DNA from: Candidatus Nezhaarchaeales archaeon
Lineage (GTDB): Archaea > Thermoproteota > Methanomethylicia > Nezhaarchaeales > WYZ-LMO8
Direction: 5' to 3'
Length of the DNA: 64,000 nt
NCBI GenBank assembly: GCA_038887515.1
Contig: JAWAKK010000001.1
Coordinates: forward strand, 672,001-736,000
Position numbers and translations under genes: made by a program. How positions within the stretch are numbered: the stretch's first letter is position 1; every line of letters starts with the position of its first letter. Below are positions 2,061 through 63,744 of the stretch, piece after piece. Under the pieces are notes generated by a model. It did not search any database. It had not been told where the DNA came from and worked only from the letters and a program-made list of their open reading frames with translations.

Positions 2061-3059
2061 TCAGAGCCAGGCCGTGATCGAGGGAATTATCACTGAAATT
2101 ATGAGGGCTACCGCAGCCATTGGAAGGACGTACTTCCAGAATAATATTAATGCTTGATCTATCCTTAATCTACCGGTCATCGTTCTAATCCACGTCACCA
2201 CCGTCACTACGATTAAGTACTCTACCATCGTTATTATCAGGGATAAATATAATGGAAGGCCTGAGAATGGGATGGGGCCTCCGAAGAACAACATCGTTAT
2301 CAGTAATGAGCCTACTACGACCTCTACATCGTGCAGTCCTAGTATTAGAGCCAGCTTAAAGCCTGAGTACTCGGTAAAGGGTCCTGCAACTATCTCTGTC
2401 TCAGCCTCCGGTATGTCGAAAGGCTTGGTCATAAGCTTGCACTGAAGAGAGAGCAGAGCTGCTATGATAGAGAGTATCATAGGTATGACTGTGTATGGAT
2501 TCATCCAAAGCTTCCATGCTGTGAGGCACGACTTGTAGAGCGAGTATTCAGCTCCGTAAATCGTGCTAGATAAGACTACAGGTGTCAGTACCGATGCAAC
2601 GAAAGTAACTTCGTAGGCAAGAGTCATGCTGAGCACCCTCGATGTCCCAACGGTACTAAAAGGGTTCGGGGTAAGGGCACCTATGAGGGCTAAAGTTATA
2701 GTTGGCCACACGAGGAGGTACATGGCCAGCATTATATCGTGGCTAGCTACTATTGGGCGTAGTGGCGCTATAGGTAGCATGAGTACTAGGGCTACCGTAG
2801 ATCCAAGAGCTATCGACAAAAGTGTAACTGCTAGCCTTGGGCTGGAGCCCTCGGTTGAAACGTCTTCCTTAAAGAAGAGCTTGATGAAATCGGCTATTGG
2901 CTGCAAGATTCCGAAGGGACCTGTGTATAGAGGCCCTATCCTATTCTGCATGTGTGCGCAAAGCTTCCTATAGTACCATTGTGTTAACCAAGCTGCTACG
3001 CTTAAGAATACGAGCCCTGGATACACTATCACCTCAAATAAAAGGTCTAATACTGTCAT
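2061..3059 (-). CDS. mbhM: Membrane-bound hydrogenase subunit, NuoH/MbhM family
   Basis: MQNRIGP, GILQPIADFIKL..KE, PFDIPEAETEIVAGPFTEYSG, RLRIDQ; polytopic membrane protein. Confidence 0.88.
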   Translation of the reverse strand: MTVLDLLFEVIVYPGLVFLSVAAWLTQWYYRKLCAHMQNRIGPLYTGPFGILQPIADFIKLFFKEDVSTEGSSPRLAVTLLSIALGSTVALVLMLPIAPLRPIVASHDIMLAMYLLVWPTITLALIGALTPNPFSTVGTSRVLSMTLAYEVTFVASVLTPVVLSSTIYGAEYSLYKSCLTAWKLWMNPYTVIPMILSIIAALLSLQCKLMTKPFDIPEAETEIVAGPFTEYSGFKLALILGLHDVEVVVGSLLITMLFFGGPIPFSGLPLYLSLIITMVEYLIVVTVVTWIRTMTGRLRIDQALILFWKYVLPMAAVALIISVIIPSITAWL

Positions 3060-3400
3060 TAAGCCATCACCGCCACAAAAGTCGCTATTAATATCACCAT
3101 AAATATAAACATCCAGAACATCCAGTCGCTTAAGATTCCTGTATGGATCCTATCTCGAAGTGTGCTATAGAGAGAATGGAAGACCCTCTTCCATACTATC
3201 GAGTACATTCCTAAGTCGGGAAGACCTGTCTTGGAGGGCTGTAACGACTCACCGCAAGCAAAAGGCTTCCTCTTCTCCTCAGACCCCTTTGCAACTGACT
3301 TCGTAGCCCTTAAGGAGAGGCCGTAGATGGCTATGAGTATTACTGACGTTACAGCAATAGCAAAGGCCGCTTCCAGTACCGTAATTAGGAGAGGTAGCAT
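3059..3400 (-). CDS. MbhI-like subunit (NuoA-type loop + NuoL-type C-terminal helix)
   Basis: TM helix, KPFACGE loop, then IHTGILSDW and a final TM helix; operon position between the MrpD and NuoH homologues. Confidence 0.7.
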   Translation of the reverse strand: MLPLLITVLEAAFAIAVTSVILIAIYGLSLRATKSVAKGSEEKRKPFACGESLQPSKTGLPDLGMYSIVWKRVFHSLYSTLRDRIHTGILSDWMFWMFIFMVILIATFVAVMA

Positions 3401-3406
3401 AATACA

Positions 3407-4999
3407 TCAACCTCCAAGTACCATTCTTATGATGTTCTGGGCTGCATATATGAAGCTCTGGGTATCGAAGAGAGATGAAACGGCTGGCAATATTACTTTA
3501 TCCACAAATATTGGCGCTAGTAAACCCAACATTATGCATGAACCTGCCAAGACCAATAGAGGTACGACCATGGATTTAGGCGCTTCCTTTATCGAAGACA
3601 TATCTCTAGTCGGTTGCCTAGCATAAATGTGATAGAAGGCCTTTAAGTAGCCCATCAACGCAAATACGCTTGTCAATACTATAACGACTACAAGTGGAGC
3701 CAACCAGCCGGTCTCCAAATAAGCTTTAAACAATAGCAACTTGCTCACAAACCCGTTAAGTGGAGGAGCACCTGCAAGAGCTAGAGAACCTATAAGAAGG
3801 GCCACGCTCGTCAGGGGCATTCTCTTGCCAATGCCAGCAAGCTCGTCAAGATTCCTACTACCCGCGGAGTGTATGATGGCTCCGGCTACCATGAATAGGA
3901 GGGCCTTCCCTATCGCGTGGTTTACTAAGTGGAAGAGGGCCGCTGATAATCCATCCGGGTTAGCTAGACCCATGCCCATAGCTATGTAACCTACGTTGAG
4001 GACTGTTCCGTACGCGATTAGCCTCTTCAGATCGCGTTGCGTAAGCATCAGCGTGGACCCTATGATTGCGGATGTAACGCCTAGGATTATCAGTGCGTAG
4101 TTAAGTGCTTGAACTATCGGGACTGTTGGTGACGCTTCTCTGAATATCGTTATTAGATACCTCATCAGCGCGAAGAGAGCAACTTTGACCATTAACCCCG
4201 ATAGTATTGCTGATATAGGTGATGGAGCGGCTGGATGAGCATCGGGAAGCCAGAAGTGGTTGGGAGCTAATGCAGCCTTTAAGCTGAAGGCCCAGAACGT
4301 CAAAGCCAAGAATATAGCAGAGCCTAGGAATACATTGCCAATCGGTGGACCCGTTACCGGTAATGTGGAGCCTCTAAGTTTTAAGGCTAGGTCGGCCATG
4401 TTCAGCGTACCAAAGGTTCCATAGGCAAACGTTAGGGCTATGAAGTATGCAGTTGTAGCGATTGAGCCTATAATCGCATACTTTACTGCTGCTTCGACAG
4501 CTTCGTGGGTTTCTCGGCGGAACGCTATTAAACCGTAAGCTGAAACCGACATTACTTCGAGCATTACGAAAAGGTTAAACATGTCGCCAGTATAGACGCA
4601 GCCAAGCATGCCTGCCTCGAAGCCTAGCATCAACGTGTAATATAGTTGCATTCTCGTCTCATGTTCCATGTAGCGCAGGCTGAAGATTGCCGCCGTTAAT
4701 ACTAGGCTAGTTATCAGGAGGCCCATTAGTGCTCCGCTACGATCAATCTCGTAAACTATACCTATGGGCGGAGGCCATGCACCGAAAATGTAAATAAGCG
4801 GTTCACTCGATTCAACGAAGAGATGATATGCTACTACGAGCGATAACATGAAGTCTATTGAGAAAATCGTTAAAGCAAAGCCCTCCCAAGCAACCCTCTT
4901 CTTTATAATTAAACTTATTAAGGGTAGCAGGAAAGCTGCAGCTATAGCTAAGAACGGCTGTACAGCTGCAAGCTTTACAGCATAATTTAGTTCGATCAA
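3407..4999 (-). CDS. mbhH: Antiporter-like proton-translocating subunit MrpD/MbhH
   Basis: GAWPPPIGI, DMFNLFVMLEVM, HFWLPDAHPAAP, DLKRLIAY, NHAIGKALLF, GAPPLNGFVSK. Confidence 0.9.
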   Translation of the reverse strand: MIELNYAVKLAAVQPFLAIAAAFLLPLISLIIKKRVAWEGFALTIFSIDFMLSLVVAYHLFVESSEPLIYIFGAWPPPIGIVYEIDRSGALMGLLITSLVLTAAIFSLRYMEHETRMQLYYTLMLGFEAGMLGCVYTGDMFNLFVMLEVMSVSAYGLIAFRRETHEAVEAAVKYAIIGSIATTAYFIALTFAYGTFGTLNMADLALKLRGSTLPVTGPPIGNVFLGSAIFLALTFWAFSLKAALAPNHFWLPDAHPAAPSPISAILSGLMVKVALFALMRYLITIFREASPTVPIVQALNYALIILGVTSAIIGSTLMLTQRDLKRLIAYGTVLNVGYIAMGMGLANPDGLSAALFHLVNHAIGKALLFMVAGAIIHSAGSRNLDELAGIGKRMPLTSVALLIGSLALAGAPPLNGFVSKLLLFKAYLETGWLAPLVVVIVLTSVFALMGYLKAFYHIYARQPTRDMSSIKEAPKSMVVPLLVLAGSCIMLGLLAPIFVDKVILPAVSSLFDTQSFIYAAQNIIRMVLGG

Positions 5000-5514
5000 T
5001 CGAAGACCCCCCTAATATATTTCTCGAAGGATTTTGATATTGCATCGTAACACTTCGAATCTTCCACGTCTTTCACATCTATCCAATGAACGTAGTAGCT
5101 TTTCTTAGTCTCATCTATGTCAACGACGACTGTTCCAGGCGTATTGGTTATTGAGCAAGCGACTGCAGCTATAGCGTAGTCGCTCTTGACGTAATAGGGC
5201 ACTCTAACTATGCCGGGCTTGATTGGCATTCTCGGGTTAAGTATCCTCTTAATCACATCCCAATGGCATTTAAGTTCCGCAATTAAGAAGTAGTAGAAGA
5301 AGTAAGCTATTGCCCATGCCCACCTAGCCAAGTTAAACGCTTTACCGGGATGCTCCTTTACCACCAAAGTTGAAGTGAAGAAGGCTACAACCGCAGACGC
5401 TATTATGCCGAGCGTTATCGTCATGAGGGATACGGACGCCGACACGATCAGGAAGACCACGAGCAGTAACAGGAATACTACTATAAAGCTTAGAATTCTC
5501 GTCCGGTTCATCAA
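4996..5514 (-). CDS. Na+/H+ antiporter subunit MrpE/MbhA
   Basis: PIKPGIVRVP...ACSITNTPGTVVVD...YVHWID motif. Confidence 0.88.
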   Translation of the reverse strand: MMNRTRILSFIVVFLLLLVVFLIVSASVSLMTITLGIIASAVVAFFTSTLVVKEHPGKAFNLARWAWAIAYFFYYFLIAELKCHWDVIKRILNPRMPIKPGIVRVPYYVKSDYAIAAVACSITNTPGTVVVDIDETKKSYYVHWIDVKDVEDSKCYDAISKSFEKYIRGVFD

Positions 5515-5517
5515 TTA

Positions 5518-5907
5518 TCACCCTTTAAGTCTAGTTATCTTCTTAACCATGATGGTGCCGTAGAGTCTATATACCTGGATTATTAGGAAGGCAATTAACA
5601 TCGTTATAGCCATGTTTATGACTATGGCTGTTACTACTAAACATTGAGGCACTGGATCTACGGCTACAGAAGCAAACCAAGCTATGTCAGTTGGCGTTGG
5701 TGCTTCTACGTGCAGTATTGGAGGTTGAGGTGTACCAAGTCTAAAGCCTATGTATATTATCAAGACGTTGGCTACGTCACCAAAAATGCTTAATGCGATA
5801 AGCTTCTTGGTAAGTGAGGCACCCCTAACTACTCCGTAAAGCGATATCGCCATTATAGCTATGAGGGCTAGGTAGCAGTACAGTTGAAGGAAGGCTTCAA
5901 TGTTCAC
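5518..5907 (-). CDS. Na+/H+ antiporter subunit MrpC/MbhG
   Basis: KKLIAL...DPVPQCLVVTAIVI motif. Confidence 0.88.
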   Translation of the reverse strand: MNIEAFLQLYCYLALIAIMAISLYGVVRGASLTKKLIALSIFGDVANVLIIYIGFRLGTPQPPILHVEAPTPTDIAWFASVAVDPVPQCLVVTAIVINMAITMLIAFLIIQVYRLYGTIMVKKITRLKG

Positions 5908-6691
5908 GGCTGAACGCCCTCCTAAACTCTTCTTCAGGAATTGAGAGTAAGAGAAACAATAGTGTAAAGCCTGCTCCTACTGCAAGGAACTCTGCAATGT
6001 TGTAAAAGAAAATTGATCCAGAAGTCTCTACGGGGCCTATGGCTTCGGGGAATGAAAATAAGGGGGACCAGGGTTTTGCTTGGTTTTGCATTAACGCTAT
6101 TGCGCCGGCTAGAACAGGTAGACCTGCAACCAACACAATCATCATTAGAAAAGTCGTCTCAATAGTTAAACACCTATTCCTAGTTAATCTTAAGGTCCCC
6201 TCTAGGAAATATCGCGAGAAAGAGGCGATAATTATTAGTTGTGCAACAGCAAAAATGGAGCCTGCTTGGAAGCCGCCGATAATGGTAGCTATGGCTACCG
6301 AAACTATAACTATTAGGGGGTAGGTAAGCCTATTGACTGTCTTAACTATTATTGAAAGGCCCAGCTCCTTCTTCCTGTTGTTGGGGCCAAGCTTTATTCC
6401 AGCTATCTTGAATAAGGCTAGGCTACCCATGACAGCTAAGAAGAATACCGAGCTTTCGTAGTACGTATCTAGTCCTCTGTAATCCCATATCATAGCTGAT
6501 ACCGGCTCACGGCTTGCAGCCCACCATGTCTTATTGAATACGTTGAATGAGTTCTCCAAGTAGAACTTAGCCAATGGCCTTACTTCTTCTGAAGGGGTCC
6601 AACCAGTGCTACCCAACATTACTGTTGCCACCAAGGTAAAGAGGAAGACCGCAGCCATTATTCCTACAATTGCATCTTTAATTCGCATCAA
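5897..6691 (-). CDS. MrpB-type subunit (fused MbhE+MbhF)
   Basis: WDYRGLDTYYE (MbhE-like) followed by SIIVKTVNR...GGFQAG...SGSIFFYNIAE (MbhF/MrpB-like). Confidence 0.8.
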   Translation of the reverse strand: MMRIKDAIVGIMAAVFLFTLVATVMLGSTGWTPSEEVRPLAKFYLENSFNVFNKTWWAASREPVSAMIWDYRGLDTYYESSVFFLAVMGSLALFKIAGIKLGPNNRKKELGLSIIVKTVNRLTYPLIVIVSVAIATIIGGFQAGSIFAVAQLIIIASFSRYFLEGTLRLTRNRCLTIETTFLMMIVLVAGLPVLAGAIALMQNQAKPWSPLFSFPEAIGPVETSGSIFFYNIAEFLAVGAGFTLLFLLLSIPEEEFRRAFSREH

Positions 6692-6945
6692 TCTGACTCC
6701 TCCATTCTTTCGGTCTTGCTTATAACGTAGAGAAGTACTATTGTGTAGATCCCTACGGCTACGGCAACATACGCTAGAACTATGTCAACAGCCATGAGTA
6801 GGAGTAGGGCTATAGCGAACGTTGCTGACTGGCCAGCTGAAAAGATGGCTGCCTTTACCAAGTCTCTGCTTTTGATGGCAAAGTACGTGAATAACGCTCC
6901 TAGCGTGAACGATAATGCTAATAATGATAATGCTACTAGAGACAT
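6688..6945 (-). CDS. MbhD-like small membrane subunit (DUF4040 type)
   Basis: 85 aa, about 3 TMs, RDLVKAAI...AVDIVLAYVAVAVGI. Confidence 0.78.
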   Translation of the reverse strand: MSLVALSLLALSFTLGALFTYFAIKSRDLVKAAIFSAGQSATFAIALLLLMAVDIVLAYVAVAVGIYTIVLLYVISKTERMEESD

Positions 6946-7322
6946 TATCCTCCCCTCCTCTTATCCTCCTCTAGGAGATCGCAGACCTTAGGTTCTACTG
7001 GAACCCCATGCCGGTGAGCCCCTCTAGCTAAGGCATGTGATCCTACCGGGGCCGTAATTACTATTATTAGGGCGGTTATAAACGAGCCTGCAGCTAGGAA
7101 CCATTTCCACTCTCCAAGAAAGTCGCAGGCTATAACCATTAGGGTTAAGCCGAATAATGGATAGACTGCGCCGCCAATTACTCCCACCGTAGCTGCATGA
7201 AGTCGAACAAAGAAGTTTGGAAACCTTACGAGACCTAGAGCGGCTACAAGATCGCAAAACGCCCCAATAATCATTAGTACAATCCCTAAGTATAGGAAAA
7301 TCGGTTCCAATATTGACCACAC
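6945..7322 (-). CDS. Na+/H+ antiporter subunit MrpG/MbhC
   Basis: GLVRFPNFFVRLHAAT...TAPVGSHALARGA. Confidence 0.9.
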   Translation of the reverse strand: MWSILEPIFLYLGIVLMIIGAFCDLVAALGLVRFPNFFVRLHAATVGVIGGAVYPLFGLTLMVIACDFLGEWKWFLAAGSFITALIIVITAPVGSHALARGAHRHGVPVEPKVCDLLEEDKRRGG

Positions 7323-7324
7323 GA

Positions 7325-7609
7325 TTATTCACCCAACTCCTTTCTTTCAAGGTATTTAGCCACGTATAAGTCGAAAATGTAAGTCCAAAGGGCGAGGCAA
7401 ATTGCACATACTATCAGGATGGGGGCTTCGAAGTATATGGCTAATACGGCCATTAGGAAACATACGTCGTAAGACAGGCAGTCGACCGCTAAAGTCATGT
7501 CTGCAACCGTTGGCCCTTTTATCGCTCTCACTACGTAAAGGATTATTGCAACACCAAATATCGGTATAACTGCGATGATGACCGTTTTGACGAGCTCTTC
7601 AATCGTCAA
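7325..7609 (-). CDS. Na+/H+ antiporter subunit MrpF/MbhB
   Basis: RAIKGPTVADMTLAVD...AKYLER. Confidence 0.88.
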   Translation of the reverse strand: MTIEELVKTVIIAVIPIFGVAIILYVVRAIKGPTVADMTLAVDCLSYDVCFLMAVLAIYFEAPILIVCAICLALWTYIFDLYVAKYLERKELGE

Positions 7610-7787
7610 GCTCCGTGCACCGCCCTATAATTTAGGGGCTCTTTCACCATCTCACATAGATATTTATTATAAGTCTTACGCCTTCTTTCACAATTAATGT
7701 TAAGTCGGAGATTCTGATGGATTATCATACTAACGGGCTTTATGCAAGGACGTAGAAGACTACGTAGAGCTTAAAAGTCTAAGCGCT

Positions 7788-8252
7788 GTGAGCTCTAGAG
7801 GCAAAAGGTGTGGAGCTTTGTCTCTACAGAGACTGGCGACGTGGGCGAGGATTAAGTCTCCTTGGATACTACATGTCAATACTGGTGCATGCAATTCGTG
7901 CGACATAGAATTGCTGGCGGCTCTGACCCCTAGGTTTGACGTTGAGCGATTCGGAATACTTTTAAAGCCTTCTCCGAGACACGCTGACGTGCTAATGGTA
8001 ACGGGCGCCGTTACTAGGCAGGCAGCAGAGAGGATTAAAAGGATTTACGAGCAGACCCCCGACCCCAAATTTGTAGTGGCCTTGGGAAACTGCACAATAA
8101 GCGGAGGTGTATTCCAAAACTGTTATGGAGTGCTGGGTGGGGTTGACAAAGTCATCCCCGTCGATACTTATATACCAGGCTGCCCACCAAGACCTGACGC
8201 CATAATCTATGGAGTTCTAAAGTTGATAGAGAAGGTGACAAAAGGTGGCTGA
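7788..8252 (+). CDS. mbhJ: Group 4 [NiFe]-hydrogenase small subunit (NuoB/MbhJ)
   Basis: GACNSCDIE, FDVERFG, SPRHAD, GNCTISGG, YIPGCPPRP. The true start may be the TTG near 7818. Confidence 0.9.
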   Translation: MSSRGKRCGALSLQRLATWARIKSPWILHVNTGACNSCDIELLAALTPRFDVERFGILLKPSPRHADVLMVTGAVTRQAAERIKRIYEQTPDPKFVVALGNCTISGGVFQNCYGVLGGVDKVIPVDTYIPGCPPRPDAIIYGVLKLIEKVTKGG

Positions 8253-8694
8253 AGTACATCCCGATATCTCGACAAGTCTTAAAGAAGAGCTTAAGGAGGC
8301 CCTACTTGATTGCGAGTACATAGCTAAGAGAAGGGTCCTCAAGGTTATAATCGAAAAAGAGGCCCTACTTAGAACTATAGGGCTAATAAGCAAGATTAGT
8401 AATGGAGAATACCACCTTACAACTATAACTGGGGCTGACCTAGATGGCGACCAAGTAGAGCTCACGTACTTTTTGTGGCTTTTACCTCAAAAGCTTCGAG
8501 TATTAATTAAGACAAGAGTTCCAAAGAGAGAATTAAAGATTCGAAGTCTAACCGATTTTATACCGGCAGCGGTGCTTTATGAAAGAGAGACCTATGAGAT
8601 GTTGGGGGTAGTTTTTGAAGGTCATCAAAAGCTTGAGAGGCTGTTCCTACCCGAAGACTGGCCTGAAGGGTCTTACCCATTAAGGAGGGATTGA
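8245..8694 (+). CDS. mbhK: Hydrogenase subunit NuoC/MbhK
   Basis: LYERETYEMLGVVFEGH..L.RLFLPEDWPEG.YPLRRD. Confidence 0.9.
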   Translation: MAEVHPDISTSLKEELKEALLDCEYIAKRRVLKVIIEKEALLRTIGLISKISNGEYHLTTITGADLDGDQVELTYFLWLLPQKLRVLIKTRVPKRELKIRSLTDFIPAAVLYERETYEMLGVVFEGHQKLERLFLPEDWPEGSYPLRRD

Positions 8695-8695
8695 C

Positions 8696-9859
8696 TTGTC
8701 AACCATAGACTTAACTGTTGGACCTATACACCCAGCTTTACATGAACCTGAAAGGTTCATGTTTAAAGTTGACGGTGAGGTCGTAGTCGACGTAGAGCCG
8801 AGACTTGGATATGTGCATAGAGGTATAGAGAAGGCCGCAACCGAAAGGACTTTTATTCAAAGTTTATACTTGATTGAGAGGATATGTGGTATATGTAACG
8901 TCTCTCATACACTAGCCTGCGTCCAAGCCATTGAAGATGCTTTTAACATCGAGCCACCAAAGAGGGCCAAATACTTAAGGAGCGTGGTCCACGAATTGAA
9001 CAGGATTCATAGCCACTTACTAATATTGGGTATAGCATGCGAATTAATAGGCTTCGATACCATGTTCATGTTAATGTGGAGAGACCGTGAAAAGGTTATG
9101 GATTTAATCGAGATGATTACTGGGAATAGAGTTATGTCGGCCTACAACATTATAGGCGGAGTTAGAAGAAATATTAGAGATTTCGAGGTATCAGAGCTCA
9201 AAAAGACATTAGGTGGCCTCGTCGAGAGAGTTAAGCGATATAAAAATGCATTCATGGAGGATCCAACAATAAGAGCTAGGTTAGTTAATGTTGGTTACCT
9301 CAATAGATCTAAGGCTTTAAGTCTTGGGGCAGTAGGCCCGGTAGCTAGGGGGTCAGGCTTAGGTGTGGATGTTAGAGTCGAAGAACCCTATGCCGTCTAC
9401 GACGAACTGACGTTTAATGTAGTCGTGTATGAAGAGGGAGATTCATGGGCTAGGTTCATGGTTAGGCTAGACGAGATAATAGAATCCATAAAGATAATAG
9501 AAAATTGCCTAGATAAGATGCCTACAGGTCCAGTTAAGGTACCAGTTCCTGGAGCTGCACCTCAAAACGCTGAGGGCTTCTCTATAATTGAAGCCCCCCG
9601 CGGAGAACTGATACATCACATCTACGTTAAGAAGGGTAGCGAAAAACCATTGCGCTATAGGGTTAGAACTCCCACTTACGCTAATATACCTGCGGTCTGT
9701 GAGATACTAAGAGGAGGATACATAGCTGACATTCCTGCAACTCTTGTCAGTATAGATCCATGTTTTTCATGTACCGATAGAGTTGCTATTATAGACGTTA
9801 AAACTGAAAAGAAGACGAGCATAGATATCTTCACATTGGCAAGGAGGTATAGGAAGTGA
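8696..9859 (+). CDS. mbhL: Group 4 [NiFe]-hydrogenase large (catalytic) subunit
   Basis: GPIHPALHEP, GYVHRGIEK, L1 motif ERICGIC, EAPRGE, L2 motif DPCFSC followed by a cleavable C-terminal extension. All four Ni ligands are present. Confidence 0.92.
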   Translation: MSTIDLTVGPIHPALHEPERFMFKVDGEVVVDVEPRLGYVHRGIEKAATERTFIQSLYLIERICGICNVSHTLACVQAIEDAFNIEPPKRAKYLRSVVHELNRIHSHLLILGIACELIGFDTMFMLMWRDREKVMDLIEMITGNRVMSAYNIIGGVRRNIRDFEVSELKKTLGGLVERVKRYKNAFMEDPTIRARLVNVGYLNRSKALSLGAVGPVARGSGLGVDVRVEEPYAVYDELTFNVVVYEEGDSWARFMVRLDEIIESIKIIENCLDKMPTGPVKVPVPGAAPQNAEGFSIIEAPRGELIHHIYVKKGSEKPLRYRVRTPTYANIPAVCEILRGGYIADIPATLVSIDPCFSCTDRVAIIDVKTEKKTSIDIFTLARRYRK

Positions 9860-10194
9860 AGATTCCTTCGCTCTTTAAAGAGGTGTGGTCTAACTTAATC
9901 AAGAGACCGGCCACGCTTAAGTATCCGTTTAAGAAATTACCAGTCCCCCAAACATATCGAGGGTTACATATACTGGTAAGGGAGCGATGCACAGGTTGCG
10001 GTCTCTGTTCTAAAGTATGTCCAGCATTCGCCATATTGATGAGACCTGTAGGTGGGAGGGTTTACCCCTTTATTGACTTGGGCAAATGTGTTTTTTGCTT
10101 TCAATGCGAAGACGCGTGTCCTCGAGGAGCTATAAAACGTGGAAAAAGTTATGAGCTCGCAACTTGGAAAAGAAGTGAATTAATATTCGGGTGA
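9856..10194 (+). CDS. mbhN: 2[4Fe-4S] subunit NuoI/MbhN
   Basis: T..YPF...YRG, CTGCGLCSKVCP, CVFCFQCEDACP. Confidence 0.9.
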   Translation: MKIPSLFKEVWSNLIKRPATLKYPFKKLPVPQTYRGLHILVRERCTGCGLCSKVCPAFAILMRPVGGRVYPFIDLGKCVFCFQCEDACPRGAIKRGKSYELATWKRSELIFG

Positions 10195-10200
10195 GTTAAA

Positions 10201-11259
10201 GTGGTTAGTATGGAAAGCTTGTCCCAAAAGTTTCTTGGACCCAAGGGATTCAACGACTTAGTAAACGAAGTCGTAGCTAAAAGAATTTGTTGTAAATGCG
10301 GTCTTTGCGTTTCGTCTTGCCCAGTACACGCAGTTGCGATGACCGAAGAAGGTCCAGAGCTCGTCAGTCCATGTAAACAATGCGAGGCATGCTATTATGG
10401 TTGTCCAAGGGGTCCAGCTTTCTCGCATGAGTTACTTGAAGCTTCTTTAAATTCTAAGAGTAAAGACGAAGTTCTAGGAAGATACATCAAGATAGTTAGC
10501 GCGAAGACCTTGCTTAAGGAGGTAGGGGCGAGGGCGCAAGACGGTGGCGTCGTTACATCCCTCTTGATATACGCCCTTAGAAACAAGCTAGTAGATGGAG
10601 CCGTGGTAGCGTCGAAAAGTCGCCCAGATCCTTGGAGACCAGAGCCTCGATTGGCCTTAACCGTAGACGATATCTTAGAGGCGGCTGGAACGAAGTACTC
10701 CAATTGCCCAAACCTAGTAGCCTTAGAGGAGGCAGTTTACGGCTATGAGCTCGATAAGGTTTGCGTAGTTGGGGTACCTTGTCAAGTTGCCGCGGCTCGA
10801 AACGTTAAGGTTCAGCCAAGAGCTGCGACAAAACTAGGAGACAAGATAGCATTCATTATCGGACTGTTCTGTATGGAATCCTTCAACCATAGAAGGCTTC
10901 TGGAATTCATGGCATCTCGCAATATTGACATACAAAAGGTGTCTAAGTTTGACATAAAGGAAGGTAAATTTAAGGCTTATATAGAAGGTGCTGAAGTCCT
11001 AGGCGTTCCCATAAAAGAAGTTAAGGGGTGCGTAAACGAGTACTGCCATGTATGTAGAGATCTTACTGCGCTCTACTCCGACATATCTGTCGGAGCCATA
11101 GGCTCCCAGCGCGGATGGTCAACGGTTATAATACGAACTAGCCAAGGAGCTGAGCTATTCGAGGGAGCTGTCAGAGAAGGATACTTGGAGGTCAAGGACA
11201 TTGAGAGCGGAATCTCCATATTAAAGAAGATAGCCGAAAGAAAAGCTTCACAAAAATAG
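10201..11259 (+). CDS. Coenzyme F420 hydrogenase/dehydrogenase beta subunit (FrhB/FpoF family) with N-terminal 2[4Fe-4S] domain
   Basis: CCKCGLCVSSCP, CKQCEACYYGCP, AQDGGVVTSLL, AAGTKYS, GVPCQ, IGLFCMESF, CHVCRD...SDISVG..G...GWSTVIIRT. Confidence 0.88.
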   Translation: MVSMESLSQKFLGPKGFNDLVNEVVAKRICCKCGLCVSSCPVHAVAMTEEGPELVSPCKQCEACYYGCPRGPAFSHELLEASLNSKSKDEVLGRYIKIVSAKTLLKEVGARAQDGGVVTSLLIYALRNKLVDGAVVASKSRPDPWRPEPRLALTVDDILEAAGTKYSNCPNLVALEEAVYGYELDKVCVVGVPCQVAAARNVKVQPRAATKLGDKIAFIIGLFCMESFNHRRLLEFMASRNIDIQKVSKFDIKEGKFKAYIEGAEVLGVPIKEVKGCVNEYCHVCRDLTALYSDISVGAIGSQRGWSTVIIRTSQGAELFEGAVREGYLEVKDIESGISILKKIAERKASQK

Positions 11260-28658: not shown

Positions 28659-29168
28659 ATGCCTGAGGAAGTCTCATTATCGCCTATAGGTCGGGACGAA
28701 ATACATAAGCTTGAAGTCGCTCTATTAATAGGCACGTTATTAAACCCAGAGTTCATAGAGTTGATGAAGAATCCGGAAGAAAGGCTTACGTGGGTTGACT
28801 CCCTTGCAGTTGCAGCTGCTGCACTTGCACGTGAAAAGGCCCACATGAGCATACCTCAAATAGCTGAAGAACTTGGTAGAAGCGAAGCGACAATTAGGAA
28901 TCACTTATCTAGGAAGACGAAGGCTGGTCAATTAGTTTGGCAAACATATGAAAGATTCGTAAGGGAAGGAGTCAAGTTAGACATAGAAAACTTAGTTGGG
29001 CATAGTTTAACGGAGACTTCTCGGCTAAAAAATGAAAACGAAGAATTGAAAAGGAAACTAGAAGAAGCCCAGAAAAGAGTTATGGAGTTGTCGCAACAGA
29101 TCCAAGAGTTATCGAGAAAGATTAGCCTTGCGAAGTCGGGGCTTCAAAGGCTCCTCGAGGAACTTTAA
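28659..29168 (+). CDS. KaiC-associated HTH regulator with C-terminal coiled coil
   Basis: ERLTWVDSLAVAAAALARE...IAEELGRSEATIRNHL...TKAG, then a heptad-repeat coiled coil. Confidence 0.8.
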   Translation: MPEEVSLSPIGRDEIHKLEVALLIGTLLNPEFIELMKNPEERLTWVDSLAVAAAALAREKAHMSIPQIAEELGRSEATIRNHLSRKTKAGQLVWQTYERFVREGVKLDIENLVGHSLTETSRLKNENEELKRKLEEAQKRVMELSQQIQELSRKISLAKSGLQRLLEEL

Positions 29169-30016
29169 AGTTCTTTCACAATCCTCCTCCTAAACCTAAC
29201 AAGTTCTTTACATTTCCTTCTCTTAGGCGAGACTAATAACGCTAGTAAATAAGCGACTGAAGCTGTAATTCCTATGAGGGCACTCGTGGTTACGTTAAGG
29301 ATCAACGATAGAATGAAACCGGAAATCCCTGATGAAATAGATATTAAGAGCGATAGAAGGAGCAACCTCTCTAAGTTATGTGAGAACTCGTAGGCTGAAG
29401 CAGCCGGAGCAATTAGCAGCACGACGGCCAAGATTATGCCCACAACTTTGATTGCTACAACAGAAAATAAAGCTATCAAAATTATCATGGTGTAGTGGTA
29501 TAAAGAAGTCCTCAAGCCCATGGCCTCGGCCCCTTCAGGGTCGAAAGTTATGAACTTAAATTCATCGTAGAAGAGGGCTACTAAGCAAAGTGTTGATGCG
29601 GCAACAATCATCAGCGTGTAGAGATCTATTAGCGAGACGCCTAGCACATCGCCAACTATGAAGGACCAAGCCGTAGCCGTATGCGTACGAGCTAAAGAAA
29701 GAAAGAGTACAGCTAATGCTGTTGAGAGGCCGAATATCATTCCTATGAAAACGTCGGCCTTCCTCTCATTACCTTGACTGACGTAAGCCGTAATCCCCGA
29801 GAACCCTAAACTCATCGCTAAAGCCCCTAATAACGGGTTCACCCCATAGACGGCTGCTATTGACGCTCCAGCAAACGATGAGTGAGTTATGGCCGCACTA
29901 AGCGTTGAAAAGCCCTTCAAGACGGTAAAAGCTCCTACTACGCTCGAAATTATTGAAGCTATTATCACTGCCACAAATGGGTTCAACATGGAGTGATGCA
30001 GTAAAAGGTCAAGCAT
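29165..30016 (-). CDS. Zn/Mn/Ni ABC transporter permease (ZnuB-like)
   Basis: ITHSSFAG, GDVLGV, TFDPEGA..MG, VVGIIL...LIAPA. Confidence 0.9.
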   Translation of the reverse strand: MLDLLLHHSMLNPFVAVIIASIISSVVGAFTVLKGFSTLSAAITHSSFAGASIAAVYGVNPLLGALAMSLGFSGITAYVSQGNERKADVFIGMIFGLSTALAVLFLSLARTHTATAWSFIVGDVLGVSLIDLYTLMIVAASTLCLVALFYDEFKFITFDPEGAEAMGLRTSLYHYTMIILIALFSVVAIKVVGIILAVVLLIAPAASAYEFSHNLERLLLLSLLISISSGISGFILSLILNVTTSALIGITASVAYLLALLVSPKRRKCKELVRFRRRIVKEL

Positions 30017-30788
30017 GATGATCAGCTCCTGATACCACTATCTTCTCACCGGCTCTAATTACGGATACCCTCCTCATGAAGGTCTTCGACAACAAGTACT
30101 CGTTCAAGACATCATAGCTCCTACCGATGGCTATTATTGTTCTATTGAGCAACATTACGTAGTCCGAGATCTCCATGAGTGGGTTTAGGTCGTGAGTTAC
30201 CATGATCACTGTAACTCCTTTATCGGCCTCCGCCCTCAAAACCTTCAATATTACATCTTGAGTTGTGGCATCGACTCCTGATAATGGTTCATCCAACAAT
30301 AGGAGTCTCGGCTCAACTGCAAGCGCTCTGGCAATCAGTACTCGTTGTTGCTGACCCCCAGACAAGTGGGCATAGGGTTCATCCCAAAACTCTTCCATCT
30401 CAACCACTTTCAAAGCTCTTTTAGCTGCATCGTAGTCCGCCTTAGTCAACCTCCTACACCATCCTCTTTTTGCAATTCTTCCCATTAAGACTACATCCTT
30501 AACTAGGAGGGGCTTTGTAGGGTCTATCCTCTCTCTTTGAGGGACATACCCCGTATACTTCCTTACTTCGTAACGTTCACGCGGTACTTCATGCTCCAAA
30601 ACCCTTATGGTACCATTAACCGGGTTTACCATTCCTAAGAGAGCCTTGAGTAGCGTGGTCTTACCAGAACCGTTGGGACCGACGATAGATAGAAAAGCTG
30701 GCTTCTTGAGCTCGAACGTGACGTCTTCTAAAGCCATCTTATCTCCGTACGCTACAGAAAGATTTTTAACAGATATGACTGTGCTCAT
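30009..30788 (-). CDS. Metal ABC transporter ATPase (ZnuC-like)
   Basis: GPNGSGKTT, GYVPQ, LSGGQQQRVLIARAL, LLDEP, THD. Confidence 0.93.
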   Translation of the reverse strand: MSTVISVKNLSVAYGDKMALEDVTFELKKPAFLSIVGPNGSGKTTLLKALLGMVNPVNGTIRVLEHEVPRERYEVRKYTGYVPQRERIDPTKPLLVKDVVLMGRIAKRGWCRRLTKADYDAAKRALKVVEMEEFWDEPYAHLSGGQQQRVLIARALAVEPRLLLLDEPLSGVDATTQDVILKVLRAEADKGVTVIMVTHDLNPLMEISDYVMLLNRTIIAIGRSYDVLNEYLLSKTFMRRVSVIRAGEKIVVSGADHHA

Positions 30789-31801
30789 TGAGTCCTCAAC
30801 CTCAGTATTAATACTGCTTCGACTATCGCTATTGCGGCCAAAGCTATCGTAGATATAACAAATGCGTCCATAGTTGGCGGTCTCGAAGATGGTGCCGCCG
30901 GTAGAAGCTCCACAAAGTGCGAGGCGATAATAACGATATTGCGCTTTATGAAGCTAACGTAGTCGTCGTCCGTGGACATTGGTATCCCATATAGATAAGC
31001 CATTCGAGCTCCAGACGCCTCTGAGACCTGTTGTGCAATACGACCTTCATCTCCTTCACTTTGAGTAGCAGATACAATTATCAAAGTGGAGGTTTTTGCT
31101 CTTTCTATTGCTTCACTTATATCTCGAGGACCAGGTAGACCCTCGCCCCTGATAATTGTACATGTTACGTCTAGCCCAAGCCACTCTGCGAGAGGCTCAA
31201 AGTGATCTGCAACAAGCACTACCTTTCTGCCTTTGAAGCCTTTACCTTCTAACCTTTTCACTACATCATCGATGTCTTGAAGCCATAACTTGAGGGCTTC
31301 AATCTTAACTTCAAATTCGCGCGCTTGGCTATAGTAGTAGTTTGAGTTTAATGGATCCAATTCCGACATCACTTCGGCTATCCTCTTGGCCAATACCTTA
31401 GCGTTATCGGGATGAAGCCACAGGTAGTGTGGATTATTGTCCCTTATAAAGGCCCCCTTCCCGACCCAGTCACTCCACGATAATACTCTCCCCTTAGGCT
31501 GAGGCAACGTGCCTAAGAACTCCTCCTTCCCTACGCTTATGAAGAGGTTGCAAGATTCTATGAGTAGTAGATCTTCGGGGGTGGGAGAATAGTGATGAGG
31601 GTCAACTCCAGCTTGTGCTAGTACACGGATCTCAGCTTTATCTCCTACGACTTCTTTAGCTATGAGGTAAAGGGGGCTTATGGTCACTACTACGATAGGT
31701 CTATCAGAAACATCAGCAGCATGAGTATAGAATGTTTGAGATAACGTGAATACTAGGAAGCAAAGAAGAAGTAGGCTAGATAACATTTTTCTCCATTCCA
31801 T
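30785..31801 (-). CDS. Metal ABC transporter substrate-binding protein (ZnuA/cluster A-I), C-terminally anchored
   Basis: Signal peptide, DPHHYSPTP, NPHYLWL, C-terminal TM helix. Confidence 0.88.
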   Translation of the reverse strand: MEWRKMLSSLLLLCFLVFTLSQTFYTHAADVSDRPIVVVTISPLYLIAKEVVGDKAEIRVLAQAGVDPHHYSPTPEDLLLIESCNLFISVGKEEFLGTLPQPKGRVLSWSDWVGKGAFIRDNNPHYLWLHPDNAKVLAKRIAEVMSELDPLNSNYYYSQAREFEVKIEALKLWLQDIDDVVKRLEGKGFKGRKVVLVADHFEPLAEWLGLDVTCTIIRGEGLPGPRDISEAIERAKTSTLIIVSATQSEGDEGRIAQQVSEASGARMAYLYGIPMSTDDDYVSFIKRNIVIIASHFVELLPAAPSSRPPTMDAFVISTIALAAIAIVEAVLILRLRTQ

Positions 31802-31901
31802 ACAATAAAAAAGTGTTAAGGTGATATATTAAAATTTTTCTTAAAAATTATTAAAAATATTAAAAGATTCCGGTATATAAATTAATATATGGTGAAGAGC
31901 T

Positions 31902-32303
31902 CTGACTATAATAACTTTTTCGATCACGGAAGAACTTGAAAAGAACTTGGATGAAGCTGTAAAGCGCATGGGCTTTGTGAGTAGATCCGAAGCGATAAGG
32001 CATGCCTTAAGACTACTTTTCTCTGAATTAACTAGTTTAGATGAATTGAGAGGTAAGGTGCTATCAGTCGTAGCAGTCCTTTATGGCAAGGAGGCCGAAA
32101 AAGCTAGGATTTACGAGGTTCAACATAAATATGGTGATGTAATAAACGCTTACTTCCACTCTCACGTAGAAGGAAGTAAATGCCTAGAAATTATGGTAGT
32201 CCAGGGAGATGCGGAGAGAGTTCGCGACTTTATATGTGGGCTAAGGGCTTCTCGACACCTTGAACAAGTGAAGGTTATAACGCTAAGCCAAGTAGAAGAT
32301 TAA
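31902..32303 (+). CDS. NikR-family ribbon-helix-helix metal-responsive regulator (probable CTG start)
   Basis: Extended frame LTIITFSITEELEKNLDEAV..G..SRSEAIR; metal site H...HSH.....C (HKYGD..FHSHVEGSKCLE). The track start at 31947 cuts off the RHH beta-strand. Confidence 0.82.
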   Translation: MTIITFSITEELEKNLDEAVKRMGFVSRSEAIRHALRLLFSELTSLDELRGKVLSVVAVLYGKEAEKARIYEVQHKYGDVINAYFHSHVEGSKCLEIMVVQGDAERVRDFICGLRASRHLEQVKVITLSQVED

Positions 32304-61460: not shown

Positions 61461-62222
61461 TTGAAGCTTCTTATGGAACCTGACGTTGATATTGCATGTT
61501 TGGAGTTAAGGGCCAGCCTAACGAACAGCGAAGCGATAATAATGGTTGGAGGCTGCGAAGTCGAATATAGTGGGCGCGCAAGCTCAACGTTGACTAGGGG
61601 TGAAAAATAGTCGTAGTAAAGCAAGATGGCTCTGTTCTAGTCCATGGACCTGAAGGTTACGAGCCCGTTAACTGGCAACCGCCCGGCTGTCTATTTAAGG
61701 TGGCTAGCCTAAGTGGACTACTAAAGATCGTTGCTACGAGGCCTAGCCCTCGCGAGGTTTTGACGATATCGTTCCATAAGATCCATATGATGGCCTGTAG
61801 GAAGCTACATGACGCAGGAGCATTCTCTATGTATGTGAGCGAGGACGAGATGAAGGAGGCTATAAGGCTTAACCCATCGTTAATCGAGGAGGGGGCTTAA
61901 AATCTTGACCTCAGAGAAGGGTCTCGGAGAAGCTGGCTACGCAGGTTTTGTAGGCGAGGATTCTAAAGGAAACTTCGTAGTGATAGAAGTCAAGAGAGGA
62001 ACTACGGGAGAAGAAGTCATACAGCTCGCTAGGTACGTTAACGAAGCTAAACAGAGGGTTAATAGATCCGTTAGGGGAATACTCGTCGCCTCCCCATTGA
62101 AGAAGAAGGGGCAACTACTCTTAGAACGATTTAAGCTCGACTTCAAGGCGTTAACGCCTGAGAATTGTAGGAAGTTCTTAAAGAAAGCTTCAGGTACGAG
62201 CCTACTTGAGTTCATGGAGTGA
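61461..62222 (+). pseudogene. nucS: Frameshifted mismatch endonuclease NucS/EndoMS
   Basis: C.V.Y.GRASS.L..GE*, then K.DGSVLVH...PVNWQPPG...IEEG*, then D..G..VVIEVKR...QL.RYV...VRGILVA. Frame breaks at A5 (61603-07) and G5 (61891-95). Confidence 0.85.
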
Positions 62223-63744
62223 GCGAGATTAGCTTCAAAACTGCGCTGTTCATCTCTTCAGTAAAGATCGTCGGGTACAAGCCCAGGAACAGCGATATGA
62301 TAGCCATGACTATTAGCGGAGCGAGGAAACTTAATGAGGCCTCTTTAACTCCATTAAGTTGCGGTGGGGTTTGTCCGAAAAGTATTCTCCTTATGGGCCA
62401 AAGCGCGTAAGCGAATGTTAAGACTGTTGCCACTATGGCCACTACGACTATAAATATCTTAAACGACTCGGAGGCTAGAGAGGCAGAACCTATAGCGCTC
62501 GTAAATATCATCCATTCACTTATGAAGCCGCTAGTGAAGGGTACTCCCATTAGTGTGAAGAAGCCTATAAACATAGTTACAGCAGTGTAAGGCATTTTAC
62601 CCGCTAGCCCTCCCATCTGGCTTATGCTCCTCGTACCGACTTGGAGCGTAAATACGCCGACTAAGAGGAACAATATCGCTTTGCCCATGGCGTGGGCTAC
62701 GTAATGAAACATGGAGCCCGTGGCGCCTATAATGGCTAAGTTCTCGGCTTTCATGCTTATTGCTAAGGCCGCAGCTCCAAGGCCTAGCAATATGTAGCCC
62801 ATCTGGCTTATGCTCGAGTAGGCTAGCAACCTCTTAAGGTCCTCTTGACTTAAAGCGTTGGCAGCTCCGTATATCATAGTTATAGTGGCTAGGACTATCA
62901 TCGCCGTAGAGACGTATTGCAAGGCAGGCGTGTAGAGGAAAACTATCCTAACTATGGCGTAGGCCGCCAAACCGCTCATAGCTGACGAGAGCAGAGCCGT
63001 TATCGGTGTAGGGGCTTCGACGTAGGTGTCTGGAAGCCAGCTGTGAAGTGGGAAGATCGCCATCTTCACGAAGAAGCCTATGAGCATCGCCGAAACGATT
63101 GCCGTTAGGACCTCAACGCTAGGGTTAAGTTGCGCTATCTTTAATGGAATTTCATATATCTCAAGAGTATGAAGGTAGCCGTTGGTCGCAACTATCCCTG
63201 CTAGGAAGCAAAGCGCTCCAGCTTCGGTGAACAAGAAGTACTTTAAAGCGACCTTCTCCTTCTCGCCGGTGCCCCACTCGTTTATTAGGGCCCAAGAGGC
63301 TACGACCGCGATTTCGAAGAATACGAAGAACTCTACTAGGTTTGTGGAGAGAGCTAGCCCTATCATTCCTAGGAAGAATAGCTGGTAGAGACTGAAGAAG
63401 ATGCCCATGTTTGGCGAGTCCTTCATGAGTTTTATCGTGTATAGAGCAGTTAGAGCCGCGACTATTGCTACCGTCAAAGCTATTGGCGAGCTTAGGCCGT
63501 CAGCCTTGAAACCAAACCTCAACGCTATGCTGTCCGTTATAACCCAATCGTACACCTTCTCATAGGATGAAGCTACGCCCGTAAAGATCTTATACGTCGA
63601 AATTCCGAAAATTCCTATCGAAAATAATGAGAGTAAGAAGGATATAAGGCCATTCCACCTGCCTAAGAGCTTGTTGAGCCCTAAGATTATTAGCGACGCT
63701 ATCGCAGGTAATATTACGGTGTAAGGAAGAAGTTCTTCTATCAT
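62212..63744 (-). CDS. Antiporter-like subunit NuoM/MrpD family of a second complex-I-like enzyme
   Basis: ADGLS, FFVFFE, ALKYFLFT, KMAIFPLHSWLPD.Y.EAP, DLKRLLAYSSISQMGY, GFISEW. Confidence 0.88.
   Translation of the reverse strand: MIEELLPYTVILPAIASLIILGLNKLLGRWNGLISFLLSLFSIGIFGISTYKIFTGVASSYEKVYDWVITDSIALRFGFKADGLSSPIALTVAIVAALTALYTIKLMKDSPNMGIFFSLYQLFFLGMIGLALSTNLVEFFVFFEIAVVASWALINEWGTGEKEKVALKYFLFTEAGALCFLAGIVATNGYLHTLEIYEIPLKIAQLNPSVEVLTAIVSAMLIGFFVKMAIFPLHSWLPDTYVEAPTPITALLSSAMSGLAAYAIVRIVFLYTPALQYVSTAMIVLATITMIYGAANALSQEDLKRLLAYSSISQMGYILLGLGAAALAISMKAENLAIIGATGSMFHYVAHAMGKAILFLLVGVFTLQVGTRSISQMGGLAGKMPYTAVTMFIGFFTLMGVPFTSGFISEWMIFTSAIGSASLASESFKIFIVVVAIVATVLTFAYALWPIRRILFGQTPPQLNGVKEASLSFLAPLIVMAIISLFLGLYPTIFTEEMNSAVLKLISLTP

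Follow-up and report, generated by a model that had tools for sequence, protein, structure and literature searches.

A hot-spring archaeon of the order Nezhaarchaeales carries a cluster of 14 closely spaced genes in which the gene for an FrhB-family flavo-iron-sulfur protein directly follows those of a membrane hydrogenase. The cluster fills positions 2061–11259 of the 64,000-nucleotide stretch of DNA analysed here (the window). Profile and structure matches mark its product as an MBH-like, Mrp-coupled group 4 [NiFe]-hydrogenase whose closest solved large subunit is MbhL of the Pyrococcus furiosus membrane-bound hydrogenase (MBH), and by the same kind of evidence the FrhB-family protein is a bona fide member of that family, yet neither a canonical FrhB nor an FpoF. 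We give about even credence to a model in which the ferredoxin domain of this protein docks onto the MbhN-like subunit, and the complex works reversibly as an F420H2:H+ oxidoreductase with coupling to ion translocation. Genomes and transcriptomes have already yielded both the cluster and this reading of it, and the window adds confirmation. What it contributes beyond that is a genome in which mcrA was not found, a linkage of FrhB and hydrogenase that is real yet facultative within the order, and a wide recurrence of the theme.

Anatomy of the locus

A previous sequence-only reading had described an MBH-type anatomy at this locus, and the open reading frames (ORFs), all confirmed in position, together with the Pfam and NCBIfam profile assignments bear that anatomy out. 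Structure matches given below are to chains of the Protein Data Bank (PDB). The genes are arranged as two divergent operons: nine Mrp/Mbh-type membrane genes on the minus strand, reading from 7609 to 2061, and five genes on the plus strand (7788–11259) in the order J-K-L-N-FrhB. Computed gaps within the operons run from −11 to +6 nt (−8 to +6 nt on the plus strand). The frhB gene starts 6 nt downstream of the NuoI-like gene on the same strand, and it ends at 11259, right up against the 3' end of the leucyl-tRNA synthetase (LeuRS) gene that converges on it. The claim that FrhB shares one operon with the hydrogenase holds for J-K-L-N-FrhB but not for the nine membrane genes, which lie on the opposite strand beyond a 178-nt spacer. 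Similarly, equivalents of all MBH subunits had been claimed; Pfam or PDB matches identify 12 of the 13 hydrogenase genes, but MbhI remains a weak assignment. The features are as follows.

2061..3059, minus strand: MbhM/NuoH-like membrane anchor, 332 aa (PF00146, 233 bits; NuoH model NF004741, 198 bits, under its cut-off)
3059..3400, minus strand: putative MbhI-like small membrane subunit, 113 aa, weak assignment (MbhI model NF053600, 30 bits against a cut-off of 95; position conserved in relatives)
3407..4999, minus strand: MrpD/MbhH antiporter-like protein, 530 aa (PF00361, 198 bits; NF006240, 388 bits, under its cut-off)
4996..5514, minus strand: MrpE/MbhA-like protein, 172 aa (PF01899, 137 bits)
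5518..5907, minus strand: MrpC/NuoK/MbhG-like protein, 129 aa (PF00420, 55 bits)
5897..6691, minus strand: MnhB-type protein, 264 aa, probably a fused MbhE and MbhF (PF04039 at residues 115–243; N-terminal part to 6u8y_E, E 2e-5, and 6cfw_E, E 0.008)
6688..6945, minus strand: MbhD-like protein, 85 aa (PF13244, 38.6 bits; 6cfw_D, E 2e-8)
6945..7322, minus strand: MrpG/MbhC-like protein, 125 aa (PF03334, 64 bits; TIGR01300, 91 bits, over its cut-off of 63)
7325..7609, minus strand: MrpF/MbhB-like protein, 94 aa, first gene of the minus-strand operon (PF04066, 44 bits)
7610..7787, no strand: divergent intergenic spacer, 178 nt, presumed from sequence and spacing to house both promoters
7788..8252, plus strand: small subunit, MbhJ/NuoB-like, 154 aa as listed (PF01058, 115 bits; NF005012, 179 bits, over its cut-off of 116)
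8245..8694, plus strand: MbhK/NuoC-like protein, 149 aa (PF00329, 93 bits)
8696..9859, plus strand: [NiFe] large subunit, 387 aa (PF00346, 247 bits; PF00374, 69 bits)
9856..10194, plus strand: MbhN/NuoI-like subunit with two [4Fe-4S] clusters, 112 aa (Fer4 families; TIGR01971, 98 bits, under its cut-off; 6u8y_N, 81 bits; 6cfw_N, 66 bits)
10201..11259, plus strand: FrhB/FpoF-family flavo-iron-sulfur protein, 352 aa (PF04432, 153 bits; PF04422, 84 bits; FrhB subfamily model NF006807, 289 bits, over its cut-off of 269)

The subunit set of a group 4 enzyme is complete, with NuoB-, NuoC-, NuoI- and NuoH-like proteins and an antiporter-like protein (PF01058, PF00329, Fer4, PF00146 and PF00361). Both Ni-binding motifs that had been noted in the large subunit are intact: RICGIC at residues 62–67 (window 8879–8896) and DPCFSCTDR at residues 354–362 (window 9755–9781), the latter followed by a C-terminal tail of 25 residues; both are kept in all 17 large-subunit relatives examined. 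The best PDB match of the large subunit is P. furiosus MbhL (6cfw_L, 296 bits), followed by Escherichia coli HycE (7z0s_E, 262 bits), Thermus Nqo4 (2fug_4, 222 bits) and the Ni-free MbsL (6u8y_L, 181 bits). A tree of 33 large subunits places the window copy in its family clade (support 100/99), with a second family of the order, f2, as sister (96/92), and sets this clade within an Mrp-type group of records titled Desulfurococcales, Thermoproteales and Bathyarchaeota (support 87–91). We take the P. furiosus enzyme to be HydDB group 4d, and Loh et al. assign the Mbh-like enzyme of Thermosphaera to 4g-5 (PMC7886697).

The small subunit has cysteines at positions 35, 38, 102 and 132; relatives align with it only from residue 12–16 of the listed 154-residue frame, and the true start may thus lie about 12 codons further in. 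In the MbhN-like subunit, eight cysteines are invariant across 21 aligned sequences. The 264-residue membrane protein seems to unite MbhE and MbhF, because its N-terminal part matches MbsE/MbhE and its C-terminal part the Pfam MnhB family. The 113-residue MbhI candidate gave neither a Pfam nor a PDB match.

An Fpo/Fqo identity was also considered for the complex. Fpo and Fqo likewise take in electrons through an FrhB-family module mounted on a peripheral arm like that of complex I, but their acceptor is methanophenazine or quinone and FpoD has no Ni site. As the partner large subunit here keeps both Ni motifs, this identity was rejected.

The FrhB-family protein

The FrhB-family protein consists of an N-terminal ferredoxin domain for two [4Fe-4S] clusters (residues ∼17–71) and an F420-reductase domain (residues ∼88–350). 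Pfam and the motifs themselves uphold the earlier description of a 352-residue FrhB/FpoF protein with two extra [4Fe-4S] motifs, encoded 6 nt past mbhN. Two CxxCxxCxxxCP motifs lie at residues 30–41 and 58–69, and none of their eight cysteines varies across 52 aligned homologues. In the same set, C194, C224 and C285 of the FrhB domain's own cluster are invariant and C282 is nearly so; all four align with the FrhB cysteines of 6qgr_B, the Methanosarcina barkeri FrhB, to which residues 88–349 match with 212 bits.

Closest in overall build are two proteins of Candidatus Ethanoperedens thermophilum, the zeta subunit of 8RIU (chain B, 208 bits) and FwdI of 8RJA (chain E, 169 bits). These show the same two-part structure and match near full length, over residues 17–351 of the window protein. 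They are described as F420-reductase modules, each with a two-cluster ferredoxin domain and an FrhB-like FAD/[4Fe-4S] domain, mounted on carbon monoxide dehydrogenase (CODH) and on Fwd (PMC11493965). According to the same source, F420 reduction was measured for both complexes, the ferredoxin domain serves as docking and electron-wire domain, and the modules were shown by experiment to be plug-ins that rewire ferredoxin-type enzymes to F420 (PMC11493965). The host enzymes there, CODH and Fwd, are soluble, whereas the host in the window is a membrane hydrogenase.

Membership of this family does not by itself dictate the substrate, and the protein might use another acceptor, such as a small redox protein or a different flavin or deazaflavin, in which case the complex would not be F420-linked. 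The family includes 7-hydroxymethyl chlorophyll a reductase (5dqr_A), the title of one paper reports rubredoxin reduction by Thermococcus FrhAGB (PMC13333549), and the window protein misses the cut-offs of both the FrhB equivalog (TIGR03289, 268.5 against 331.5 bits) and the FpoF model (NF040616, 176 against 475 bits). Its best PDB matches, however, are all F420 enzymes (FrhB, the 8RIU and 8RJA modules, and Fsr; 150–212 bits), against only 51 bits for the chlorophyll reductase, and the genome encodes F420 biosynthesis as well as the F420-dependent Mtd and Mer (see Genome context). We therefore regard a non-F420 acceptor as very improbable.

Published counterparts

The closest counterpart comes from the cultured Methanonezhaarchaeia strain YNP3N, which expresses a group 4 hydrogenase, named 'Ehi-1', flanked by frhB (PMC12700198, Sci Adv, December 2025). 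Its authors propose that Ehi-1 oxidises F420H2 and report having found no other F420-recycling gene; their Supplementary Table 4 gives a transcription value for frhB (CLR 1.31) similar to those for mbhJKL (1.46–1.71), and an FrhB-associated complex, there called Ehi-2, is described as conserved in nine species clusters of the family (PMC12700198). Compared by gene order rather than by sequence, Ehi-1 reads identically to the window as frhB, Fe-S, mbhL, mbhK and mbhJ, then MnhF, MnhG, a hypothetical gene and an MnhB-type gene, and continues as in the window with MnhC, an MnhE-type gene, a NuoL-like gene, a hypothetical gene and an fpoH-like gene (PMC12700198). The two hosts belong to the same order, and the same F420H2/H2 coupling at a membrane complex has been proposed for Ehi-1. 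In YNP3N, a methyl-dismutating relative, another frhB (gene 00504) is listed past the fpoH-like gene (PMC12700198), where the window has none. A second difference is that McrA was not found in the window genome.

In a euryarchaeal lineage, the Syntropharchaeia (f__YL-1), group 4g clusters adjoining FrhB were read in the same way, as H2-driven F420 reduction (PMC12533140, Nat Commun, October 2025); we compared these by description only. For the Fpo-like/Hfo clusters of Bathyarchaeia and Nezhaarchaeota, FpoF/FpoO are stated to be absent in earlier papers (PMC7886697, PMC8407382, PMC10306296). Our literature search found nothing on Hfo or Ehi combined with FrhB beyond the YNP3N and Syntropharchaeia papers, and no biochemical characterisation of such an F420-linked membrane hydrogenase. 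The sequence-only reading knew of no characterised example, which is right as far as biochemistry goes, but this kind of cluster and the inference drawn from it have both been published (PMC12700198, PMC12533140).

Linkage within the order

Of 15 genomes of the order, 11 encode an orthologous large subunit (62–77% identity), the window genome among them; the copies of family f1 are 72–77% identical to that of the window. In five of these 11, representing two genera (the window genome, G008, G009, G011 and G012, with placement in G009 judged from coordinates), FrhB stands directly after the NuoI-like gene, and the record L015 shows the same adjacency. The window and G008 have one FrhB copy each at the site between the NuoI-like gene and LeuRS. 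G011 has two tandem paralogues there (L019, 11118–13570), 66% and 72% identical to the window copy.

Among these paralogues, the window protein is 70–74% identical to the second, LeuRS-proximal type (b) and 63–66% to the first (a), and 43 diagnostic sites divide into 30 b-like, six a-like and seven neither. The tree and the AU test do not decide between placement with a and with b (AU p 0.39 and 0.31). A simple a/b recombination hybrid was rejected because the a-like sites are not clustered at the 5' end.

A number of observations weigh against the docking model. In the other six of the 11 genomes (G013, G006 and G001–G004) FrhB does not follow the NuoI-like gene. G013, of the same genus as the window genome, has a DUF362 gene in its place, 95 nt past the NuoI-like gene (L031, 6936–7802), whose product may be an alternative electron-transfer partner. 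In G006 the NuoI-like gene is followed after 226 nt by LeuRS, with no FrhB at the site, and in G001–G004 the FrhB genes (45–48% identity) sit among HSP20, SUI1 and arginase genes. The b-type paralogue, which the window copy resembles, stands alone in two records (L009 and L010). With six of 11 genomes having no FrhB at the site, the hydrogenase evidently needs no FrhB encoded in cis. The window copy is furthermore the sole FrhB-family gene found in its genome and may for that reason serve other partners, and the missed FrhB and FpoF cut-offs belong on the same side of the balance. The FrhB module had been called 'dedicated' to the hydrogenase, and between the single FrhB gene of the genome and an adjacency found in just five of 11 genomes, that description is not borne out.

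The same distribution keeps alive an explanation in which FrhB is a soluble ferredoxin:F420 oxidoreductase that merely shares a ferredoxin pool with a ferredoxin-dependent MBH-type hydrogenase, so that adjacency would reflect co-regulation only. Besides the six genomes without linkage, including families f2 and f3 with their FrhB among HSP20, SUI1 and arginase genes and G006 with no close FrhB in the assembled sequence, it draws on the closest solved relative, as the P. furiosus MBH uses ferredoxin. A soluble role has also been proposed for FqoF of Archaeoglobus, as cited in PMC10667645. Set against this are the 6-nt gap, too short for frhB to have a promoter of its own unless it lay within the upstream gene, the docking and electron-wire role of the ferredoxin domain in 8RIU and 8RJA (PMC11493965), and the recurrence of same-strand placement after a NuoI-like gene across unrelated FrhB clades and cluster architectures, described below. 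On balance we consider the soluble oxidoreductase unlikely, though it is the strongest alternative to docking.

Linkage beyond the order

Ten loci of other Thermoproteota were picked from coordinate lists of a 401-genome sample. At all ten, an FrhB-family protein is encoded within or next to a group 4 cluster, and the large subunit of each cluster has retained its two Ni motifs. Many of the linked FrhB proteins are ∼505 residues long and end in a C-terminal CBS pair, which suggests, from domain content, control by adenine nucleotides. A search with such an FrhB-CBS protein recovered 19 loci, titled Bathyarchaeota/Bathyarchaeia, Brockarchaeota or Nitrososphaerota (within L041–L069). At 18 of them, NuoB-C-D-(H)-I or a full NuoB...N series immediately precedes the gene on its own strand, in a group 4 cluster whose Ni motifs are intact; the 19th begins at the edge of its contig.

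To gauge how common the linkage is, we relied on the 80 closest large-subunit relatives, taken regardless of FrhB, since a FastTree of 96 rows included rows chosen for having FrhB and its count of changes is accordingly biased. Eighteen of the 80 (17 with archaeal titles, one Pirellulales; mostly Bathyarchaeia) have an FrhB-family gene within 9 kb. MrpE/F/G matches occur at four of the 80 loci, of which the Nezhaarchaeota locus alone has FrhB. In the 33-row large-subunit tree, FrhB-linked clusters occupy at least five separate clades.

The Pirellulales-titled contig (L092) bears an archaeal-type cluster with a large subunit 57% identical to that of the window and FrhB nearby. It groups with Bathyarchaeota rows and may for this reason be mis-binned.

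Genome context

The sequence-only reading had called for a check of F420 biosynthesis genes, and such genes are present in the window genome (G000; 1.29 Mb in nine contigs, 94% complete). CofH (501 bits), CofD (343 bits) and CofE (287 bits) are all over their cut-offs, the CofH gene adjoins a second radical-SAM gene, and the F420-dependent enzymes Mer (471 bits) and Mtd (392 bits) are encoded. Neither McrA nor Fno/NpdG was found in this 94%-complete genome. A CdhA gene (1158 bits) lies at C1:667463–669739, 2.3 kb before the window start, in a neighbourhood shared with G011 and G009.

Three loci of the genome match PF00374, none of them a group 3a (Frh) locus. The sole cluster outside group 4, with four genes and of group 3 (L038, C1:169318–173781) encodes a Fer4_22 subunit, an NAD-binding subunit, a small subunit and a 430-residue large subunit, followed by a HycI-type protease; HypD is also present in the genome (430 bits). 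A group 3a Frh was considered as the true partner of FrhB and rejected, the cluster being sulfhydrogenase-like with its NAD-binding subunit. The third locus, also of group 4, has an arm of Nuo type, and its Ni motifs are intact. It begins within the window (62212–63744, minus strand) and runs on past the window end (L037, C1:736001–752000); it has no FrhB and matches the published gene list 'Ehi-2 (no frhB)'.

Being the only FrhB-family protein found in its genome, the window FrhB could instead work mainly with an HdrA-MvhD-type protein in an F420-linked bifurcating or confurcating complex, its hydrogenase neighbourhood being incidental. Such complexes are proposed for Methanoperedens, Culexarchaeia, Korarchaeia and Bathyarchaeia (PMC9723716, PMC10667645, PMC7886697), and an MvhD (FlpD) domain (166 bits) does occur in a 794-residue frame at G000:C1:458861. 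That frame, however, lies 223 kb from frhB and is not co-located with it, and linkage of FrhB to hydrogenases recurs across lineages. We consider an HdrA-MvhD partnership improbable.

Across the order, McrA was found in four of 15 genomes (G006, G008, G009 and G011), among them the congeners G009 and G011 of the window genome, where it was not found. A third hydrogenase type of G008, G009 and G011 (47–48% identity) is likewise missing from G000. Within its genus, the window genome may belong to a branch in which methanogenesis was lost.

Proposed electron path and direction

If the model of a docked FrhB is right, the locus would encode the Nezhaarchaeales 'Ehi-1' enzyme, and its MbhN/NuoI-like subunit would exchange electrons with the FrhB-type module instead of, or besides, ferredoxin. 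Electrons from F420H2 would enter the FrhB domain at its FAD and [4Fe-4S] cluster and pass to the two clusters of the N-terminal ferredoxin domain. From there they would reach the two MbhN clusters, the MbhJ cluster and finally the [NiFe] site of MbhL, where H2 would be formed; the path should be reversible. We infer FrhB–MbhN binding, the use of F420, ion coupling and direction alike.

The F420/F420H2 couple lies at about −340 to −360 mV and the H+/H2 couple at −414 mV, a difference of some 11–14 kJ/mol. Because the couples lie so close, the Mrp-type arm would set the direction: the membrane arm would conserve some energy, in a small amount, on the downhill course and would spend ion-motive force on the uphill one. 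In the window organism we favour H2-driven reduction of F420, feeding Mtd and Mer of the Wood-Ljungdahl pathway, since the genome has Mtd, Mer and CdhA, and neither McrA nor Fno nor a group 3a Frh was found in it; with McrA not found, the host is probably not a methanogen and its enzyme may run from H2 to F420. The opposite direction, from F420H2 to H2, is the one published for the methyl-dismutating YNP3N (PMC12700198).

Comparison with related complexes

The P. furiosus MBH (6CFW) remains the nearest structural model. It provides the closest large subunit and matched MbhD, MbhE and MbhN chains, and has, as does the window complex, an Mrp module and a NuoH-like anchor. The window differs in having two divergent operons rather than one mbhA-N operon, an apparently fused MbhE/MbhF, a weak MbhI equivalent and the extra FrhB gene. 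Hfo of Bathyarchaeia is described as an Fpo-like, 11-subunit group 4g enzyme (PMC7886697), and its Ni motifs are intact, as in the window. Its membrane arm is of Nuo type, whereas that of the window is of Mrp type, and the neighbouring FrhB there has the C-terminal CBS pair.

Significance

More tentatively than the docking model itself, and at somewhat less than even confidence, we suggest that FrhB-type modules are a plug-in that archaeal group 4 hydrogenases have acquired repeatedly. 'F420-dependent energy-converting hydrogenases' would then be widespread, in an Mrp-type form in Nezhaarchaeales and in a Nuo/Hfo-type form with CBS-regulated FrhB in Bathyarchaeia and Brockarchaeota. In the window organism such an enzyme would be the sole link between H2 and F420, replacing the soluble Frh, and at low H2 the ion gradient would serve to hold F420 in its reduced state for the Wood-Ljungdahl pathway.

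Characterised enzymes that link H2, F420 and membrane potential are the soluble Frh, the ferredoxin-dependent Ech, Mbh, Eha and Ehb, and the Ni-free Fpo. Direct coupling of H2/F420 exchange to ion translocation would, if true, be a new bioenergetic node, at which cells could drive a near-equilibrium reaction either way, at the cost or gain of part of an ATP. It would bear on F420 balance in non-euryarchaeal methanogens, in acetogen-like Bathyarchaeia and in archaea without mcr. As a cultured relative exists in strain YNP3N, the hypothesis is directly testable.

A possible nickel uptake system

Elsewhere in the window, at 29165–32303, a NikR-like regulator (NikR_C, 118 aa) faces an operon for a ZnuA/ABC-3/ABC_tran metal transporter. 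By its domains and position, this transporter could serve nickel uptake for the three hydrogenases of the genome.

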